From the NCBI GenBank assembly GCA_037478835.1, contig JBBFLV010000001.1:286526-310525 (forward strand): a DNA stretch of 24,000 bases, in the 5' to 3' direction. The position numbers and the translations under genes were made by a program. Below, piece after piece: positions 9,132 to 16,215 of this stretch. Position 1 is the first letter of the stretch. Each line of letters opens with the position of its first letter. The DNA is from Anaerolineales bacterium. GTDB taxonomy: Bacteria > Chloroflexota > Anaerolineae > Anaerolineales > Villigracilaceae. The notes beneath the pieces were generated by a model, which worked only from the letters and a program-made list of their open reading frames with translations, made no database searches and was not told where the DNA came from.

Positions 9132-9229
9132 GCCGTTGTAATTGACATGCTTCTATCCTTGTCTGGTGGTAGATTACGGCATATGGAGTCTCCCACCCTT
9201 TTTTACCTGGCTGGGTATAATTGAGCTTG

Positions 9230-9904
9230 ATGGACGTTTCCTCTCCCTTTTCTAACCTCTCTCCACAGGTGCGCGAGAAGTTGCGCCCTCTCGTGCGGAC
9301 CCGACAGTTCGATGCAGGGGAGGTGATCTTTTTACAAGATGAACCTACCCAGGCCATTTATATCGTTGGACAAGGCCGGGTAAAGATCACCCGTACAACG
9401 CCGGATGGGGAGGAGAGCATTCTCTGCATTCGCAAGGCCGGCGAATATTTTTGCCCGGTCCCTTTGCTGGATGGAAAAGGACAACTGGGCACTGCTTCTG
9501 CGATCACCCCGGTGACCATCCTTTGTATCGAGCGTAATGCTTTCCTGCAATTGTGTCAGGAGCATCCGGAACTGCTCGCCGTTGTTCAGGCAGATTGTTT
9601 GGGGGAAGTACGCTATCTTTTGCATCGTTTGGAAACGACCACTCATCGCACCTTGCGCGAACGCGTGGTCGTGGCTTTGTTGGATGCGCTCCATTCTTCT
9701 AAAGAGGTGGAAAACAATCATGGCGTGGTCCTGCTCACCCATCAGGAATTGGCCGGTCTGAGCGGAGTCTCAAGAGAAAACACTTCACGCGTGCTCAAAG
9801 AACTGGAACGGGAAGGCTTGTTGAAGCTACAGCGGGGGAAAATCCATATTCTGGATATTGCACGCTTGAGAAGAATGCTGGAGCCCACCTTCTATCGTCG
9901 GTGA
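9230..9904 (+). CDS. Crp/Fnr-family transcriptional regulator (cNMP-binding-like sensor domain + C-terminal HTH)
   Basis: The beta-roll region (EVIFLQDEPTQAIYIVGQGRVKI...) is followed by the HTH THQELAGLSGVSRENTSRVLKELEREGLL, which closely parallels the E. coli CRP helix GCSRETVGRILKMLEDQ. The start is uncertain: ATG 9230 is preferred over the TTG 9221 of the track ORF. Confidence 0.85.
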   Translation: MDVSSPFSNLSPQVREKLRPLVRTRQFDAGEVIFLQDEPTQAIYIVGQGRVKITRTTPDGEESILCIRKAGEYFCPVPLLDGKGQLGTASAITPVTILCIERNAFLQLCQEHPELLAVVQADCLGEVRYLLHRLETTTHRTLRERVVVALLDALHSSKEVENNHGVVLLTHQELAGLSGVSRENTSRVLKELEREGLLKLQRGKIHILDIARLRRMLEPTFYRR

Positions 9905-10108: not shown

Positions 10109-10552
10109 ATGGAACAGAGGAAAAAAGTGAATGAATTGAGTTTTGACGAGTGGCAAAAGACGATTCCGGACTACATCAGAAACGATCCGCTATGGGAATC
10201 TGGTTATTACCGGTTAGCGTTGTACCTCTACGATCTTGTCTGGCAAGATTGCGGTTTGCTGAAGCGAGATTTTCGCGGCCGAGAAATAGCCGGCCAGATC
10301 ATCCGCAGTGCAGGAGGCATTTGTGCCAATCTAGAAGAAGCGTACGGACGAGGAGTTGGCACAGCCGATTATGTGCGTGTGATGCGTATTGCTCTCGGCG
10401 AAGCCCGCGAGACACGCGGCTGGTATTTTCGTGCTCGCCGGATTCTCCCCCCGGAATTGCTCTCACATCGTGCTACTCTCACCGGAAAACTGATCGCTAT
10501 GCTTTCAAGCACCATCTCTTCCCACCGTAACAACCTGGGTAAATCGTCATAG
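10109..10552 (+). CDS. Four-helix-bundle protein (23S rRNA intervening-sequence protein family)
   Basis: Family-typical motifs QIIRSAGGICANLEEAYGRG ... YVRVMRIALGEARETRGWYF, compared with the family pattern QLxRSxxSIxxNIxEGxxR ... FLxIAxGSxxE. Lower GC than the surroundings. Alternative start GTG 10127, preceded by GAGGA. Confidence 0.7.
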   Translation: MEQRKKVNELSFDEWQKTIPDYIRNDPLWESGYYRLALYLYDLVWQDCGLLKRDFRGREIAGQIIRSAGGICANLEEAYGRGVGTADYVRVMRIALGEARETRGWYFRARRILPPELLSHRATLTGKLIAMLSSTISSHRNNLGKSS

Positions 10553-10658
10553 CCTACCCTCCTGCGCTCTCCCCTCCTACCCTCTAACCTCCTACCCTCT
10601 AATCTCCTACCCTCTAACCTCCTACCCTCTAATCTCCTACCCTCTAATCTCCTACCCA
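10553..10658. repeat. Tandem array of a 15-nt unit CTCCTACCCTCTAAY (family A)
   Basis: Five full units at 10574-10648, a partial unit at 10649-10658, and a degenerate lead-in from 10553. The last base alternates C/T. Confidence 0.9.
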
Positions 10659-10682: not shown

Positions 10683-11534
10683 ATGCATAGAATCCGTACC
10701 AAACTCAAACTTTATTGGCCCCTCATCAAATCCCTCCAAACCAGCCTCTTGCTGGCAACTGGGCTGGCCGGCTATCTCAGCGCGCACACGTCGCCTTCCG
10801 GGTTGATCCTGCTAGGCGTGGCCGTCAGCCTGTTCCTGGCCATCAGCGGCTCGACCGTGCTCAATATGTGGTATGACCGTGATATTGACGCGGTGATGAA
10901 CCGCACCCATCACCGTCCGTTGGTCACCGGGCGCATTTCGCCGACCGAGGCCTTGCGACTGGGGCTGATCCTCTCGATCCTGGGCGTGGGGTTGGCCGTG
11001 TGGATGTCGCCGCTCTACGGGCTGGTGGTCTTCGCCGGGCTGTTCTTTGACGTGGTCATCTACACCCTGTGGCTCAAGCGCCGCACCTGCTGGAGCATCG
11101 TCTGGGGCGGGATTGCGGGAGGGATGCCTATCCTCGCCGGACGGGTGATGGCCATCGGACAGATTGACCTGATCGGCATTCTGCTCAGCATGGCCGTGCT
11201 GTTCTGGATCCCGACCCACACCCTCACCTTTTCCATGCGCTTCTTCGCCGACTATCAAGCGGCGCGCGTCCCGACCTTCCCCTCCACCTACGGCTTTGAG
11301 ACCACCCGAGCCGTGATCGCCCTTTCGGCGATCATCGCCGCGGCCAGCATGGGGGTGGCCGGCGTGATGATCGGCGTTCAGGCCGGCTTCCTGCGTCTGA
11401 TGGCCGTGCTCTCGGCGGGATTGCTCCTCCTCTCCTTCGCCACCGTCTTCCGCCCCTCTGAGCGGATCAACTACAGTTTGTTCAAGTACGCCTCGCTGTA
11501 CATGTTGGCCTCCATGATTCTGCTTTCGATTTGA
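10683..11534 (+). CDS. ctaB: Protoheme IX farnesyltransferase (heme O synthase), UbiA prenyltransferase family
   Basis: 283-aa polytopic protein. Asp-rich motif NMWYDRDIDAVMNRTHHRPLVTGRIS, typical of CtaB/CyoE. No obvious SD before the ATG. Confidence 0.72.
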   Translation: MHRIRTKLKLYWPLIKSLQTSLLLATGLAGYLSAHTSPSGLILLGVAVSLFLAISGSTVLNMWYDRDIDAVMNRTHHRPLVTGRISPTEALRLGLILSILGVGLAVWMSPLYGLVVFAGLFFDVVIYTLWLKRRTCWSIVWGGIAGGMPILAGRVMAIGQIDLIGILLSMAVLFWIPTHTLTFSMRFFADYQAARVPTFPSTYGFETTRAVIALSAIIAAASMGVAGVMIGVQAGFLRLMAVLSAGLLLLSFATVFRPSERINYSLFKYASLYMLASMILLSI

Positions 11535-11647
11535 CCGTAGACGGTGGACCATAGACCGTTGACCGAGACGGTAGACCGTAGACCGTCCACCGTCTACCGT
11601 ACCCAGTCCGTCCACCGTCCACCGTCAACCGTCCATCGTCCATCATC
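11535..11647. repeat. Heptamer-period repeat block GACCGTN / CCACCGT (family B) with an internal 13-bp inverted repeat
   Basis: Successive 7-mers: gaccgta gacggtg gaccata gaccgtt ... cgtccac cgtccac cgtcaac cgtccat cgtccat. GTAGACGGTGGAC (11537-11549) is the reverse complement of GTCCACCGTCTAC (11585-11597). Confidence 0.85.
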
Positions 11648-11649
11648 CC

Positions 11650-12255
11650 ATGAAAACCTCTCCTCTCTCTCGTCTCTTCCTCCTACTCACCGCGTTGCTG
11701 GCTGCCTGGCAGGTGGCGATCGGTATCGAAGGCCTGGAACATGTGCCGGTGCTGGCCTATACCGTCGGCTTCGGCGTCCTGCTCGTCGCCTGCCTGTTGC
11801 TGATCATTCTCGGCCTGGATGTGTTGGAGAGTCCGATCGTGGTCATTGTCTCCACCGTCATCCCGCTCAGCCTCTCGTTAGGGTTGGTCTGGGAGCACCT
11901 GACCTCCTGGCGGACGGCTTACCTGACCTTTGCCCTGGCCGGCTTTCTGGCCATCCTCGTCACCCGTGCCTTCCCGTTCAAGGGGCGGTGGCCGGTGCTT
12001 GTGTTGGCGGTTGTCCATGGGGTTTCCGGGCTGATCATCTTTCTCCTGCCGAGTATCCTGGCGGCGCAGGGAGCTACCCGTCCGGGCTTTGCCCTGGTCG
12101 GCCTGGGCGGCGCGCTGATCGGGCTGGGCGGGCTGCTGCTCTCCTTCCTGAAAACCGGCCGGCCAATCCTGCCGCGTGAGACGATCTTGCGTATCCTGCC
12201 GGCCCTCTTGCTGTTGACGACCGCCGCCTTCGTGGCCGGCTTTGCGTTGGCGTAG
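11650..12255 (+). CDS. Hypothetical polytopic membrane protein (about 6 TM segments)
   Basis: 201-aa ORF of alternating hydrophobic helices. No recognisable motif and no SD. The start abuts the heptamer repeat block. Confidence 0.5.
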   Translation: MKTSPLSRLFLLLTALLAAWQVAIGIEGLEHVPVLAYTVGFGVLLVACLLLIILGLDVLESPIVVIVSTVIPLSLSLGLVWEHLTSWRTAYLTFALAGFLAILVTRAFPFKGRWPVLVLAVVHGVSGLIIFLLPSILAAQGATRPGFALVGLGGALIGLGGLLLSFLKTGRPILPRETILRILPALLLLTTAAFVAGFALA

Positions 12256-12422: not shown

Positions 12423-12496
12423 GGCCGACTAGCTCAATTCGGTAGAGCAGCTGACTCTTAATCAGTTGGTTCGGGGTTCGAGTCCCCGGTCGGTCA
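12423..12496 (+). tRNA. tRNA-Lys (anticodon CUU)
   Basis: Hand-folded cloverleaf: acceptor GGCCGAC/GTCGGTC (one G-U), D arm GCTC/GAGC, anticodon stem GCTGA/TCAGT with loop CTCTTAA (anticodon CTT), variable loop TGGTT, T arm CGGGG-TTCGAGT-CCCCG, discriminator A. CCA is not encoded. Confidence 0.9.
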
Positions 12497-12502
12497 CTCC
12501 AC

Positions 12503-12529
12503 CCGCCGTCCAGGCGGTTTTTTTATTTT
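12503..12529 (+). terminator. Rho-independent terminator after tRNA-Lys
   Basis: CCGCC (12503-12507), loop gtcca, GGCGG (12513-12517), followed by TTTTTTTATTTT. Confidence 0.75.
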
Positions 12530-12566
12530 CCTCACCGCTCGGCAAGGGGGGGCTGTGACTCTTTTA

Positions 12567-12575
12567 TGCTACAAT
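12567..12575 (+). promoter_or_regulatory. Extended -10 promoter (TGcTACAAT) for the NACHT gene
   Basis: aTGcTACAAT lies 31 nt upstream of ATG 12606. The identical 10-mer ATGCTACAAT occurs at the CODH/ACS promoter. Confidence 0.5.
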
Positions 12576-12605
12576 TAATCCCAAATCCCCTCCCCAGAGA
12601 CGGCC

Positions 12606-15455
12606 ATGGGCGATCGGAATACTTCAATCGGCGGCAATGTCGAAAACAGCATCATCAACACCGGTGATCACAACATCTTCAACCTGGGCACGCCTGCACT
12701 GACCCCGGAAGAACAGGAGCGCCTGACGCAGGCCTACCTGCAGGCCGTGGCCGCCGAGTGGGCTGTGTTGCGCCTCTACGAAGGGGAGGAAGAAGAGCGC
12801 GGCATCCCGCTGACCGATGTCTATGTGCTGCTGCAGGCCCGCCACACCCCGCCGCCCAAACCTTTGGAGCCTCCCCGCCCGGACGTGCCCAGATCCGAAG
12901 ATCGGCTAAAGCACACAGGCCCGCAACTTCCTTTCACGCCTCTCGAAGAAGAAAAAGCGCGCCAGGAGCATCAACCGCCTCCCCCGCCGCCCCCGCCGCC
13001 CGTCCCACTGAAGGACGCACTCAAGGATGCTACCCACCTGATGTTATTGGGTGAACCCGGCAGCGGCAAGAGCACCACGCTGCAATTCATCGGTCTGTGC
13101 TTTGCCAGGCGGGAAGAGAACTGGGCGCAGGAGAAACTCGGCCTGGAGGAAAGCCGCGTGCCGGTCTTGCTGCGCCTGCCCGTTTGTGCCGAGGAACTGG
13201 CTAAGGGCGGTGACGGGCTGCGCCGCGCCCTGATAGAAGAGATCGCCCGTTTGCTGCAGCAATCCGCTATCGCCGAACAACTTTACGAATCCTGGACGGC
13301 AAACGGCCGCTTGCTGGTGCTGCTCGACGGGCTGGATGAAGTGCATGAGCAACGAGAGAAGGTGCGCGAGCAAATCGAAGCCTTCGCCCGTGCCCCGGCC
13401 GGACGAAACGCCCGCCTGGTAGTGGCTTCCCGCATTGCCGGCTTCAGAACCTTGCAGGGGCTGAAGGAATACACCCTCCAATCGCTGGAAAAGGCGGACG
13501 ACATCCGGCATTACCTGGAAGGCTGGCTACGGGCGCTGGAAATCAAGGGCAACCCGAAAACCGAAGCGCAGATCCTGCTGGAGAAGATGCAGTCCGTCCC
13601 GGCCCTGCGCCGCGTGTTGGATAACCCCCTGCTGCTACGCCTGAGCGCCGAGGTCTATGCCCGCCAGGGGGAGATCGCCCGCAACCGCGCCGACCTTTAC
13701 GCCCGTTACGTGGCCGAAGCCTGGCGGCGCGCCGAACGCCGCGGCATTGATCGCAACCGGAAGAAGAGGGCTAGACGGGCACTGAAGGCCATCGCTTGGC
13801 ACCTGCATAGCGGCGGTGAGCGCGGCGAAGAGCGCCTGCTCCAACTGCTGCGGGAAAACGGCCTAGCCGCCGATGCTGAGACCGCGCGGGAGTTGCTGGC
13901 TCTGCTGCGCCAGAAAACCGGCCTGTTGGTGCGCCTGGAAGGGAATCAGTACGCCTTTGCCCATGCTACCATCGGCGAATATTTCGTCGCCTGCTACCTG
14001 AAGTGCGCCTGGAAAAAGAACCCGCGGCGCACGCGGGCCTTCCTACGCCCGCGTTGGCATCTGCCCGAATGGCGCGAGCCGATCATCTTGCTGGCCGGGA
14101 TGTTGGGGAAGAATCAACTCCAGGCGCTGCTTGCTGACCTCTGGCCGCCGCGGGATCGCTTCGAGCGCGCTGCTTACCGCAACCTGTTCCTGGCGGCCGA
14201 ACTGGCCGCCGAGGCTGGGCGTTGGGAAGACTTGGCGCCGACCTTGCGCCCTGCCCTGCTTTGCGCCCTACACGATGAAGACTGGTGGGTTCGTATGGTC
14301 GCAGTGTATACGCTGAGGAACACAGAGGATCGAGATAGATCGACAATCGATCATTTGAGTGTTGCGTTGCTAAAAGATAAGGAGTGGACAGTTCGTGCTG
14401 CAGCGGCTGAGACATTAGGCGAAATTGGCCAACATGCCGGTAGAGATGAGTTTGCCGGAATTGTGAAATCTTTGATTGATGCTTTGAATGACCAGGATAT
14501 ACATGTCCAAGAGAAAGCGACTGATGCTCTGGCAAAAATCGGCAAAGTTTTAAGTGAGCTAAATGAGCTAAATGAGCTAATAAAAGTATTCCAAAATTAC
14601 AACCAAAATGACGAGTTATATTCGCATATCGTCCGGATTCTGAGCAGAATCGGTAAGCCCGCAATAGATTTTCTTGTTCGAGCTTTGGAAAAAGCAGAAG
14701 GGTATAAGTACGTAGAGATTATGTTTACTCTGCAAGATATACAAAGTAGAATTCAAGGTGAAAATCAGGCAGAATCATCGGATTGGTATCAGAAGATTTG
14801 GGCCTACATAAAGAACAATCATTTGCTAGAAATGCAACTCGGTGATCCACGTGATCCACAATTTCTACAAGCCCAAATCCGAGATTTGCAAGATAGAGAT
14901 AAGAATAAGCGTCAGCGGGCAGCTTGGGTATTGGCAGAGATCGGTGACCCACAGGCCATACCTGCCCTGCTCTATGCTTTGCGGGATAAGGAAGAAGAGG
15001 TGCGCAGGAGGGTGTCTTGGGCTTTGCAAAGGATTTTCCGAAATCTACGTTTATCCCAAGATTCGGACATAAATCGCAAAATTATGAGCCTTCTCCGTTT
15101 ATCTCATACACTTTGGCGTCTAAGGCGAGCCGGAGGAGTCTCCCTCCTCTCCTCTGCGTTGACCTACCGCGACGCCCTGGAGGTCGCCCTCTCCACGTGG
15201 AAGGACCCGCTCCAACCGCCGCCGCAGGAAGTGCGCCGGGCGCAGCTCCGGCAGGCGGTGCAAGGGGTAGGCCTGGCTCTGCTGGCCGGGTTGGCCGGGG
15301 TGCTCGCCATTCTGCTCGGCGGAGTCGGGAAGGCGCTGGGCGATTTGATCGCCCCGCTTTGGGCCGCGCGGCCGTTTCTCCTGCTTCTGGCCGCAGTGAT
15401 CCTGCTCGGCGCGTTGGGCTGGGCATTGCAGCGCCGGCTTGAGAGCAGGAAATAG
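12606..15455 (+). CDS. STAND NTPase: NACHT domain + HEAT (PBS-lyase-type) repeats + C-terminal double TM
   Basis: Walker A LLGEPGSGKST (13050-13076 for GEPGSGKST). Walker B LLVLLDGLDEV (13311-13343). HEAT repeats include KDKEWTVRAAAAETLGEIG and DRDKNKRQRAAWVLAEIGDPQAIPALLYALRDKEEEVRRRVSWALQRI. Terminal hydrophobic helices GVGLALLAGLAGVLAILLGGVG and PFLLLLAAVILLGALGWAL. Confidence 0.85.
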   Translation: MGDRNTSIGGNVENSIINTGDHNIFNLGTPALTPEEQERLTQAYLQAVAAEWAVLRLYEGEEEERGIPLTDVYVLLQARHTPPPKPLEPPRPDVPRSEDRLKHTGPQLPFTPLEEEKARQEHQPPPPPPPPPVPLKDALKDATHLMLLGEPGSGKSTTLQFIGLCFARREENWAQEKLGLEESRVPVLLRLPVCAEELAKGGDGLRRALIEEIARLLQQSAIAEQLYESWTANGRLLVLLDGLDEVHEQREKVREQIEAFARAPAGRNARLVVASRIAGFRTLQGLKEYTLQSLEKADDIRHYLEGWLRALEIKGNPKTEAQILLEKMQSVPALRRVLDNPLLLRLSAEVYARQGEIARNRADLYARYVAEAWRRAERRGIDRNRKKRARRALKAIAWHLHSGGERGEERLLQLLRENGLAADAETARELLALLRQKTGLLVRLEGNQYAFAHATIGEYFVACYLKCAWKKNPRRTRAFLRPRWHLPEWREPIILLAGMLGKNQLQALLADLWPPRDRFERAAYRNLFLAAELAAEAGRWEDLAPTLRPALLCALHDEDWWVRMVAVYTLRNTEDRDRSTIDHLSVALLKDKEWTVRAAAAETLGEIGQHAGRDEFAGIVKSLIDALNDQDIHVQEKATDALAKIGKVLSELNELNELIKVFQNYNQNDELYSHIVRILSRIGKPAIDFLVRALEKAEGYKYVEIMFTLQDIQSRIQGENQAESSDWYQKIWAYIKNNHLLEMQLGDPRDPQFLQAQIRDLQDRDKNKRQRAAWVLAEIGDPQAIPALLYALRDKEEEVRRRVSWALQRIFRNLRLSQDSDINRKIMSLLRLSHTLWRLRRAGGVSLLSSALTYRDALEVALSTWKDPLQPPPQEVRRAQLRQAVQGVGLALLAGLAGVLAILLGGVGKALGDLIAPLWAARPFLLLLAAVILLGALGWALQRRLESRK

Positions 15456-15460
15456 CCAGG

Positions 15461-15507
15461 CCGGAATCGGACACGGATGGGCACGGATGACACGGATTCG
15501 CACGGAT
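15461..15507. repeat. CACGGAT-type repeat block (family C)
   Basis: CACGGAT at 15472, 15482, 15491 and 15501, spaced 9-10 nt. AATCGGACACGGATGGGCACGGA resembles AATGGGACACGGATGGACGCGGA at 6531-6553. Confidence 0.8.
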
Positions 15508-15596: not shown

Positions 15597-15659
15597 CTAA
15601 CCCCTACCCCCTAACCTCTAACCCCTAACCTCTAACCCCTAACCTCTAATCCTCCCCCT
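15597..15659. repeat. Heptamer tandem array CTAACCC/CTAACCT (family A variant)
   Basis: ctaaccc ctacccc ctaacct ctaaccc ctaacct ctaaccc ctaacct ctaatcc tccccct, with strict 7-nt phase. Confidence 0.9.
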
Positions 15660-15660
15660 C

Positions 15661-15690
15661 CACGGTCTACGGTCCACCGTCCACCGTCAA
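15661..15690. repeat. Family B copy (ACGGTCT ACGGTCC ACCGTCC ACCGTCA)
   Basis: The 19-mer GTCCACCGTCCACCGTCAA at 15672-15690 is identical to 11610-11628. Confidence 0.85.
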
Positions 15691-15714
15691 ATCAAGAAAT
15701 TTGTCATCCTGCCA

Positions 15715-15758: not shown

Positions 15759-15834
15759 GTATTAAGCAGGATTTTATTTTAGAGGTTTGAGGTCACCATG
15801 TACAACACTTCATGATTCCCGTCAGGAGGTGGCT

Positions 15835-16215
15835 ATGGAAAAGGTCTCGTTTGTAGCGCCGGCGTTGTACGGTGATCACCATGTCACCGAGGTGCGGCGG
15901 ATGCTTCTTTCTCTGGAGGGGGTTACGGAAGTCTATGCCAGCAGTGCCTTTCACGTCATTGAAATCACCTACGATCCGCAAACGATCAATGCAGAACAAC
16001 TGAAGGCGACCCTGGAGCGCAGCGGCTATCTGGATGAATTGCCCGTGCCGGTCGAAGCACCGCCGCAAGGGGGACCCGGCGATGGTCACACCTTTTTCCG
16101 TCACACCGCGGTGATGGAAAACGTACGTCAAGTTACGTTTCTGCGCCCGGCACCCTATCAGGGGCGGCCTCTCTGGCCGTGCCCCGGCTTTGGGGTGTTG
16201 AAGGCGGAGGACTAG
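15835..16215 (+). CDS. Small HMA-fold-like protein lacking the CxxC metal site (hypothetical; possible metallochaperone)
   Basis: AGGAGG at 15824-15829 lies 5 nt before ATG 15835. The N-terminal 70 aa follow the HMA pattern (V.F..P.LYGDHHVTEVRRMLLSLEGVTEV...VIEITYDPQTINAEQLKATLERSGY), with LYGDHH where MxCxxC normally sits. Confidence 0.6.
   Translation: MEKVSFVAPALYGDHHVTEVRRMLLSLEGVTEVYASSAFHVIEITYDPQTINAEQLKATLERSGYLDELPVPVEAPPQGGPGDGHTFFRHTAVMENVRQVTFLRPAPYQGRPLWPCPGFGVLKAED

Follow-up and report, generated by a model that had tools for sequence, protein, structure and literature searches.

Bacterial NACHT proteins defend against phage, and HEAT-repeat sensors, transmembrane (TM) C termini, the two combined, and adaptors of the effector-associated domain (EAD) or Death-like type recur among them; the D[GAS]hDE Walker B signature of NACHT was defined in the same work (Kibby et al., 10.1101/2022.07.19.500537). 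EAD10 is an alpha+beta adaptor proposed to recruit effectors via homotypic interaction, and by the general EAD principle a second copy is typically present on the effector, often in an adjacent gene (Kaur et al., PMC7159879, PMC8195603). Short amyloid signalling motifs at the extreme N terminus of NLR proteins are described as bacterial amyloid signalling sequences, or BASS motifs (BASS1-10, Dyrka et al., 10.1101/2020.01.06.895854; BASS11, E. coli Bab/Agp, 10.1101/2024.11.07.622273), and fungal NLRs (HET-E/NWD type; NWD2/HET-S pair) join a NACHT module to internally conserved, length-polymorphic repeat arrays. Among helical repeats, the alphaRep scaffold (Urvoas/Minard libraries), which is built from thermostable HEAT-like repeats of the PBS-lyase type, has units in which positions 18, 19, 22, 26 and 30 form the randomised face that touches targets in crystal structures (PMC3754942). 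Here we describe a gene for a 949-residue NACHT-HEAT protein in a 24,000-nucleotide stretch of an Anaerolineales bacterium (Chloroflexota; contig JBBFLV010000001.1, positions 286,526 to 310,525), referred to below as the window.

The architecture class of this protein is already known; what is new is a specific tail module, half of an EAD10 domain as a motif that is paired with TCAD2 in related loci, and the exchange of a sensor cassette. The interpretation that we favour, and to which we attach moderate confidence, is that the gene encodes a standalone, horizontally mobile, NLR-related conflict sensor that is tethered to the membrane and would signal through homotypic coupling of a short N-terminal strand motif.

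A NACHT-HEAT protein of a Chloroflexota subfamily

The open reading frame (ORF) allows no in-frame upstream extension. The identical 949-residue protein is held at NCBI, from an Anaerolineales metagenome-assembled genome (MAG), where it is labelled only "HEAT repeat domain-containing protein". An earlier annotation made without database searches, here called the sequence-only reading, had listed the ORF, Walker A and Walker B motifs, an acidic EEEE stretch, a run of nine prolines and two C-terminal helices, and each of these is present at the place given for it (Table 1). Its proposal of a NACHT-type STAND NTPase also holds up. The Pfam NACHT profile (PF05729) matches with 33.3 bits against a cut-off of 26.7 and is covered from position 3 to position 164 of 167, and residues D241, G242, L243, D244, E245 and R276 are invariant across 120 homologs; H485, W489 and E491 are invariant in the helical and winged-helix region. 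An AlphaFold model built from the 120 homologs (predicted local distance difference test, pLDDT, 84.8; predicted template modelling score, pTM, 0.80) finds NAIP/NLRC4 (8fvu_B, E 2.5e-7) as its best solved-structure match in a Foldseek search of the PDB, with an alignment of 663 columns that takes in the helical and winged-helix part. The proline-rich part ahead of the NTPase is modelled with low confidence (pLDDT 50-65 over residues 85-135). Judged by profile, Walker signatures and modelled fold, the protein is a bona fide NACHT-clade STAND NTPase, a bacterial relative of the NLR immune receptors of animals and fungi.

The likeness to the proteins surveyed by Kibby et al. lies in the D[GAS]hDE Walker B of the central NACHT, in the tripartite layout of an N-terminal effector or adaptor slot, a NACHT module and a C-terminal "antigen-receptor-type" repeat sensor, and in an enrichment in multicellular bacteria. 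It differs from them in that its N terminus is only half an adaptor domain, and in that, as a protein of the subfamily combining HEAT repeats, WxDPLQPPP and a TM hairpin, it gives no significant match to the PADLOC or NCBIfam antiphage models. A known defence system was considered and rejected, as PADLOC returned only P-loop-level matches and the NCBIfam EruA model scored 16.9 bits against a cut-off of 1000. No enzymatic effector domain was found in the 949 residues by Pfam, NCBIfam or PADLOC.

Many homologs occur in Chloroflexota, among them proteins of Roseiflexus sp. RS-1, Chloroflexus and Thermoflexus. They share a layout of a variable N terminus, a YLxAVAxEW helix and strand, a Pro-rich insert, NACHT, a HEAT array and a conserved tail, the last running from a long helix through WxDPLQPPP and two TM helices, which are separated by a conserved amphipathic stretch of about 14 residues, to a basic end. 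These sequence features place the protein in a NACHT subfamily that is centred on Chloroflexota and has a fixed layout. When 1.84 billion cluster representatives were searched with a profile of the tail, no more than 105 proteins matched, and in every one the tail forms the extreme C terminus; of 43 new matches that were examined, 39 have HEAT repeats ahead of it, and the long ones carry NACHT as well. Because the tail is restricted to these 105 proteins, is invariably C-terminal and goes together with HEAT and NACHT, the hairpin is the signature of a small and specific subfamily. The C-terminal TM hairpin of the sequence-only reading is therefore present, but it is no peculiarity of this protein. 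A portable C-terminal module was also considered, and is rejected since the tail was never found outside HEAT/NACHT proteins in that search. Arg and Lys residues lie on both cytoplasmic sides of the two-helix hairpin, whose topology would be N-in/C-in and which would tether the protein to the inner face of the cytoplasmic membrane.

Sensor variation and a cassette of foreign composition

The HEAT/PBS-lyase-like repeats named in the sequence-only reading were confirmed, with Pfam HEAT_2 (92.6 bits, E 1.9e-26), HEAT (73.9 bits) and HEAT_PBS (30.4 bits) all above their cut-offs, and about 7-8 helical pairs in the AlphaFold model, where they form a confident solenoid of paired helices (pLDDT ~80-90) with one disordered insert. 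In the family at large the arrays are long, regular runs of 31-residue HEAT units which, in profile searches against PDB sequences, match designed alphaRep binders with E-values from 1e-139 to 1e-40. Comparison of 963 units from 113 family proteins shows a nearly invariant framework with variation at unit positions 4, 5, 8, 12 and 16, which at an offset of 14 are the five alphaRep positions given above, and the small-residue bias of alphaRep position 23 is reproduced as well. Between members whose N termini are almost identical, length varies from 888 to 1438 residues, which corresponds to about 18 units, and two syntenic Roseiflexus loci have arrays of unequal length. The variation in the HEAT units, as read from the alignments, has the pattern of a fast-evolving binding surface. 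The resemblance to alphaRep thus extends to unit length, framework and variable positions; the differences are that alphaReps are designed soluble binders whereas the family array is the predicted sensor arm of a membrane-tethered NTPase, and that a divergent HEAT cassette of irregular build has taken the place of the array in the gene described here.

This cassette accounts for a compositional mosaic that the sequence-only reading had noted, which is real and lies inside the ORF. The G+C content at third codon positions (GC3) is 0.75 over 12606-14282, 0.40 over 14283-15110 and 0.81 over 15111-15455, with the other genes of the window ranging from 0.52 to 0.84. The gene of the closest homolog (P0002, in the unrelated locus L001) shows 82% DNA identity over 12559-14282 and 87% over 15111-15441 and no homology between these segments; its counterpart of the low-GC block is a 19.3-copy tandem HEAT array with a 93-nt unit. 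Both junctions fall in conserved family sequence, and identity shifts within a few dozen bases. As judged from composition and alignment, the HEAT array of this gene has been replaced wholesale by a cassette of foreign composition.

No close relative of the cassette was found among 5.8e9 proteins, where only generic HEAT similarity of 30-41% is seen, its best match within the family is at 33-35%, and a search for the donor with the block alone found none. The 3' part of the cassette can still be aligned, at 40% identity as against 75-90% in the flanks, to the post-HEAT linker that is specific to the family, and because this alignment persists the donor was probably a divergent member of the same family in a lower-GC genome. 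We note an in-frame 9-nt tandem repeat within the cassette at 14551-14580 (TAAATGAGC, 3.3 copies), which encodes ELNELNELI and is a possible slippage site.

A mosaic of this kind could also arise if homologs from two organisms had been joined in a chimeric metagenome assembly, or could mark a degenerate, non-functional copy. The source is a MAG, the jump in GC3 is extreme, the repeats of the block are irregular and include a disordered insert, and no close relative of it is known, all of which would fit such an artefact or decay. However, an independent Logan assembly (run SRR33387333) covers both junctions and agrees at 100% identity over 5629 nt, which argues against a chimera, and a k-mer assembler is unlikely to join sequences of ~50% identity. 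The frame stays open through 949 codons, AlphaFold still gives the block a confident HEAT solenoid, and the position of the junctions in conserved family sequence is what recombination would give. We regard artefact or decay as very improbable.

The N-terminal strand motif and its proposed coupling

The first 28 residues are G/N-rich, as the sequence-only reading had observed (39% G+N; 5 G, 6 N, 4 I, 0 K, 0 P and 1 L). When a profile of this short motif is compared by hhalign with the EAD10 N termini of the family, residues 2-27 align to positions 41-66, immediately after the helical part, with a probability of 97.1% and E 6e-11, and in homolog P0009 the Pfam EAD10 match (PF19954) spans profile positions 5-73 of 77, with the motif included. 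Because of this alignment, and because the EAD10 match of P0009 runs through the motif, the G/N-rich segment is identified as the beta half of EAD10. The alpha-helical half is missing, and the ORF has no room upstream for it. The statement in the sequence-only reading that no effector is recognisable thus stands as far as enzymatic domains are concerned, but does not extend to the N terminus, which is a recognisable adaptor fragment.

The same slot in the 120 homologs is occupied by EAD10 in about 44 and by the strand motif only in about 16, the two closest homologs among them; other occupants are a Trypsin_2 peptidase (P0096) and the bacterial Death-like domain 1, bDLD1 (P0114). By domain content this is a site at which known conflict adaptors and effectors are exchanged for one another.

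In four related Chloroflexota loci (L009, L011, L013 and L014) the strand motif is carried by a NACHT protein and again by the product of the next gene. These NACHT proteins have the motif at their N terminus and a C-terminal FGE-sulfatase-like sensor and are without TM helices, and their neighbours are small proteins of ~125 residues with the motif at the N terminus followed by TCAD2 (PF19971). Its presence on both partners in four loci argues that the strand motif alone acts as a paired coupling element, and a guess in the sequence-only reading that the short N-terminal motif might be the output module gains strength from the EAD10 homology and from these pairs. The arrangement recalls EAD10 in that the motif aligns with the beta part of that domain, stands in the N-terminal slot of a STAND core component, is replaced in homologs by full EAD10, bDLD1 or trypsin, and occurs in adjacent-gene pairs with TCAD2 in related loci. 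In L009 the pair is preceded by genes for a PDZ-GAF histidine kinase and a FIST protein.

The motif also fits the criteria for BASS motifs in length, position and composition, and a relation to them is a possible lead. It is ~25 residues long and at the extreme N terminus of an NLR, is G/N-rich with alternating hydrophobics and almost no K, P or L, has predicted strands, and has a second copy on a small neighbouring protein in some related loci. It differs in that the partner motif is N-terminal rather than C-terminal and the partner domain is TCAD2 rather than Bell, and no matching C-terminal motif on an adjacent Bell-type or other effector is found at this locus.

A motif-profile search of a large protein database returned only mini-proteins of 45-79 residues (P0211-P0244), many of them little beyond one or two motif copies, although the collection of candidates was apparently length-dependent, so that this result is uninformative on architectures. 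Most of these probably represent the N-terminal parts of larger genes cut off at contig ends; a few lie on long contigs, P0218 (46 residues) on one of 459 kb and P0223 (68 residues) on seven contigs.

A plausible scenario is that the HEAT array, through its alphaRep-like variable face, would bind a trigger, most likely an invader-derived protein, and that in the present gene this role would fall to the foreign cassette. Binding would release NTP-dependent oligomerisation of the NACHT module, which would bring together the 26-residue N-terminal strand motifs, and these, once clustered, would associate homotypically, perhaps by beta-templating, with partners that carry EAD10 or the motif itself and so recruit or activate them. 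Such partners would have their genes at other sites of the genome, and the hairpin would serve as the membrane anchor. Fungal NLRs offer a parallel in their NACHT module and length-polymorphic repeat arrays and in a short N-terminal motif as output, here a predicted one; they differ in having WD40, ANK or TPR repeats in place of HEAT, and the present locus has a membrane hairpin and no adjacent pore-forming partner. A more speculative extension, which we think unlikely, is that the strand motif is a signalling element which templates beta structure autonomously, much as an amyloid does, and forms the functional core of EAD10, possibly being the same as BASS11, so that a membrane NLR would nucleate a polymer activating partners such as TCAD2 proteins, with sensor cassettes exchanged between distant lineages.

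Several observations weigh against the coupling scenario. Pfam searched with residues 1-70 alone gives nothing at E <= 1, so the EAD10 model itself is unmatched and has no score on the 949-residue protein, and the AlphaFold strands at residues 15-18 and 23-26 are of low confidence. Unlike typical EAD10 systems the locus has no second copy nearby: six-frame regular-expression and hidden Markov model scans found no further copy of the motif, EAD10 or TCAD2 in the window, and no motif, EAD10 or TCAD2 partner beside the homologs in L001, L002, L085 and L086. A partner in cis was considered and is rejected, the downstream gene for a heavy-metal-associated (HMA)-like protein being part of the carbon monoxide dehydrogenase/acetyl-CoA synthase (CODH/ACS) operon and the 201-residue membrane protein upstream not being kept beside homologs. 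About 25-30 of the 120 homologs have no N-terminal module at all, so that output from that end is not universal in the family. The gene matches no defence system in PADLOC, and its immediate neighbours are housekeeping (fatty-acid synthesis, UbiA, tRNA and the CODH/ACS operon).

The main rival interpretation is that the C-terminal hairpin is itself the effector, with NACHT oligomerisation bundling hairpins and amphipathic segments so as to depolarise or permeabilise the membrane in abortive infection, the N-terminal motif being accessory. The hairpin module is the sole invariant feature of the subfamily besides the NTPase, it is the only candidate output of those members that lack an N-terminal module, and WxDPLQPPP and the segment of 14 residues between the TM helices are more conserved than simple anchoring would require. 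However, many members carry N-terminal trypsin, EAD10 or Death-like domains, which suggests output at that end; a hairpin of two helices flanked on both cytoplasmic sides by positive residues is what an anchor typically looks like; and, unlike portable effectors, the module is never detached or fused to other sensors. We consider a hairpin effector possible, though rather doubtful, and continue to favour coupling through the strand motif.

Mobility and genomic surroundings

The gene carries its own conserved promoter-like TGnTAnAAT element. DNA homology between the window and L001 begins at 12559, 47 nt upstream of the ATG, and takes in the extended -10, which together with the leader is kept upstream of the P0002 gene, there as TGCTAAAAT. 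The sequence-only reading had credited the gene with an extended -10 promoter of its own; the TGcTACAAT element is visible and conserved at another locus, but a consensus -35/-10 scan found no full promoter pair upstream of the gene.

The two closest homologs, at 62% and 50% identity, lie in unrelated loci among housekeeping genes. We also compared the interval from tRNA-Lys to CODH with 34 metagenomic loci in which CODH relatives (77-85% identity) are preceded by enough sequence. Of these, 33 retain CODH and ACS together with the HMA-like gene, and none of the 34 has the NACHT gene, the tRNA-Lys, the membrane protein or UbiA upstream of CODH; a conserved, syntenic and slowly evolving locus, which the sequence-only reading had named as the finding that would count against it, is thus not what is seen. 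As judged from these comparisons the gene is accessory, mobile and non-syntenic. In viral contigs no family member was found, only distant NACHT relatives at 23-30% identity, and a phage origin is rejected on that ground. In Roseiflexus RS-1 (L085) an IS110 transposase gene adjoins the NACHT-HEAT gene on its downstream side, as it does in the syntenic L086, and genes for an AAA_15/21 ATPase and a Schlafen-AlbA_2/HATPase_c_4 protein are inserted upstream that are absent in L086; the RS-1 region (L085, 3119-7032 and 12403-13365) looks like a small variable defence hotspot.

These comparisons also bear on whether the protein might have no part in conflict and be a housekeeping or developmental membrane scaffold or signalling NTPase of filamentous Chloroflexota. 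The housekeeping flanks and the lack of a PADLOC match would suit such a role, and HEAT proteins are frequently scaffolds, with PP2A-A among the fold matches. But synteny is lost even between homologs of 62% identity, the gene is missing upstream of related CODH operons with enough upstream sequence, the sensor shows cassette replacement and repeat-number polymorphism, the N-terminal modules are conflict-system adaptors and effectors, and the subfamily is small and patchy. We therefore consider a housekeeping role improbable.

The sequence-only reading had further argued for an accessory, fast-evolving locus from its position next to a tRNA and from flanking repeat blocks. The lack of synteny and the variable sensor agree with that view, but neither the tRNA adjacency nor the repeats provide evidence of an island. 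The ORF begins 108 nt after tRNA-Lys(CTT), and a terminator-like GC-rich hairpin with a T-run lies between them at 12503-12517; a search of the window that allowed up to 3 mismatches found no second, att-like copy of the tRNA 3' end, and the window contains no integrase. A tRNA-targeted integrative island is rejected for these reasons. The coordinates of the features are collected in Table 1.

Table 1. Features of the NACHT-HEAT gene, its tRNA neighbour and related loci. Positions are those of the window except in the last row.
Feature	Position (nt)	Strand	Residues	Remarks
tRNA-Lys(CTT)	12423-12497	+		Neighbour, outside the system; with its terminator to 12527
Promoter-like extended -10, TGcTACAAT	12567-12575	+		30 nt 5' of ATG; read directly in the sequence
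NACHT-HEAT-TM-hairpin ORF	12606-15455	+	949 aa	ATG start
N-terminal strand motif GDRNTSIGGNVENSIINTGDHNIFNL	12609-12686	+	2-27	Beta half of EAD10 (hhalign)
Pre-NACHT region	12696-13034	+	31-143	Conserved YLQAVAAEW helix, EEEE, strand VYVLL, Pro-rich insert
Acidic EEEE	12786-12797	+	61-64	
Nine prolines (P9)	12975-13001	+	124-132	In disordered Pro-rich insert
NACHT NTPase core	13038-13529	+	145-308	Pfam PF05729
Walker A GEPGSGKST	13050-13076	+	149-157	Lys155
Walker B LLVLLDGLDEV	13311-13343	+	236-246	Holds DGLDE
Sensor-1 Arg276	13428-13442	+		In SRIAG
NACHT-associated helical and winged-helix region	13530-14222	+	309-539	NPLLLRL 13623-13643; FAHAT 13956-13970
HEAT region	14223-15098	+	540-831	~7-8 helical pairs, irregular; disordered insert at residues 718-750
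Low-GC replacement cassette, 828 nt	14283-15110	+		Nearly all of the HEAT region and the post-HEAT linker
Family-specific C-terminal module	15102-15452	+	833-949	Long helix, WKDPLQPPP, TM1, inter-TM segment, TM2, basic tail
WKDPLQPPP	15198-15224	+		
TM1	15264-15329	+	887-908	Hydrophobic helix
Inter-TM segment KALGDLIAPLWAAR	15330-15371	+		Conserved, amphipathic, ~14 residues
TM2	15372-15428	+	923-941	Hydrophobic helix
Basic tail RRLESRK	C-terminal end, after TM2	+		
NACHT-FGE-sulfatase-like + TCAD2 loci	L009 5914-8991; L011 5404-8656; L013 5812-8969; L014 5917-8996			

The repeat blocks themselves are real, but are found in several intergenic spacers and not only around the NACHT gene. Short tandem arrays are present in four of them (10554-10657, 11531-11642, 15470-15507 and 15597-15688), with a 15-mer, the heptamers GACCGTA, ACCGTCC, CTAACCC and TCCACCG, and a 19-mer as units. 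A 35-nt inverted pair, 11528-11562 and 15659-15693, is 89% complementary and encloses the membrane-protein gene, tRNA-Lys and the NACHT gene. In L001 other short arrays lie directly beside the gene copy (9853-9901 and 13872-13896).

Among the other genes of the window, most of which have a GC3 of 0.68-0.84, two compositional outliers are a CRP-family regulator gene (9221-9904, GC3 0.575) and a gene for a four-helix-bundle protein of the 23S-rRNA-intervening-sequence type (10109-10552, GC3 0.52). Directly upstream of tRNA-Lys, 11650-12255 encodes the 201-residue polytopic membrane protein, which has no Pfam match and was not found beside homologs of the NACHT gene. The HMA-like gene (15832-16215, 127 residues) lies ~400 nt upstream of CODH in 33 of the 34 related loci, and because it is kept there it is part of the CODH/ACS operon; the product, which may be an accessory protein for handling metals, matches the heavy-metal-associated domain weakly (20.9 bits, under the cut-off).

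These findings leave the general view of bacterial NLR-related proteins as it was. If the favoured interpretation is correct, the subfamily would represent a compact, single-gene case in which three principles of eukaryotic NLRs are combined, namely a hypervariable repeat sensor, nucleotide-driven oligomerisation and a minimal adaptor motif, and it would come from a filamentous bacterial phylum that has been little studied for immunity. The lone strand half of EAD10, together with the pairs of NLR and neighbour, would link effector-associated domains with amyloid-type motifs, and would do so in a short peptide that is directly testable. The natural arrays would be wild counterparts of the alphaRep binder scaffold and suggest what such repeats evolved for, and the natural sensor swap, of an 828-nt HEAT cassette for a 19-unit array, would mean that the specificity of these receptors can be exchanged wholesale.

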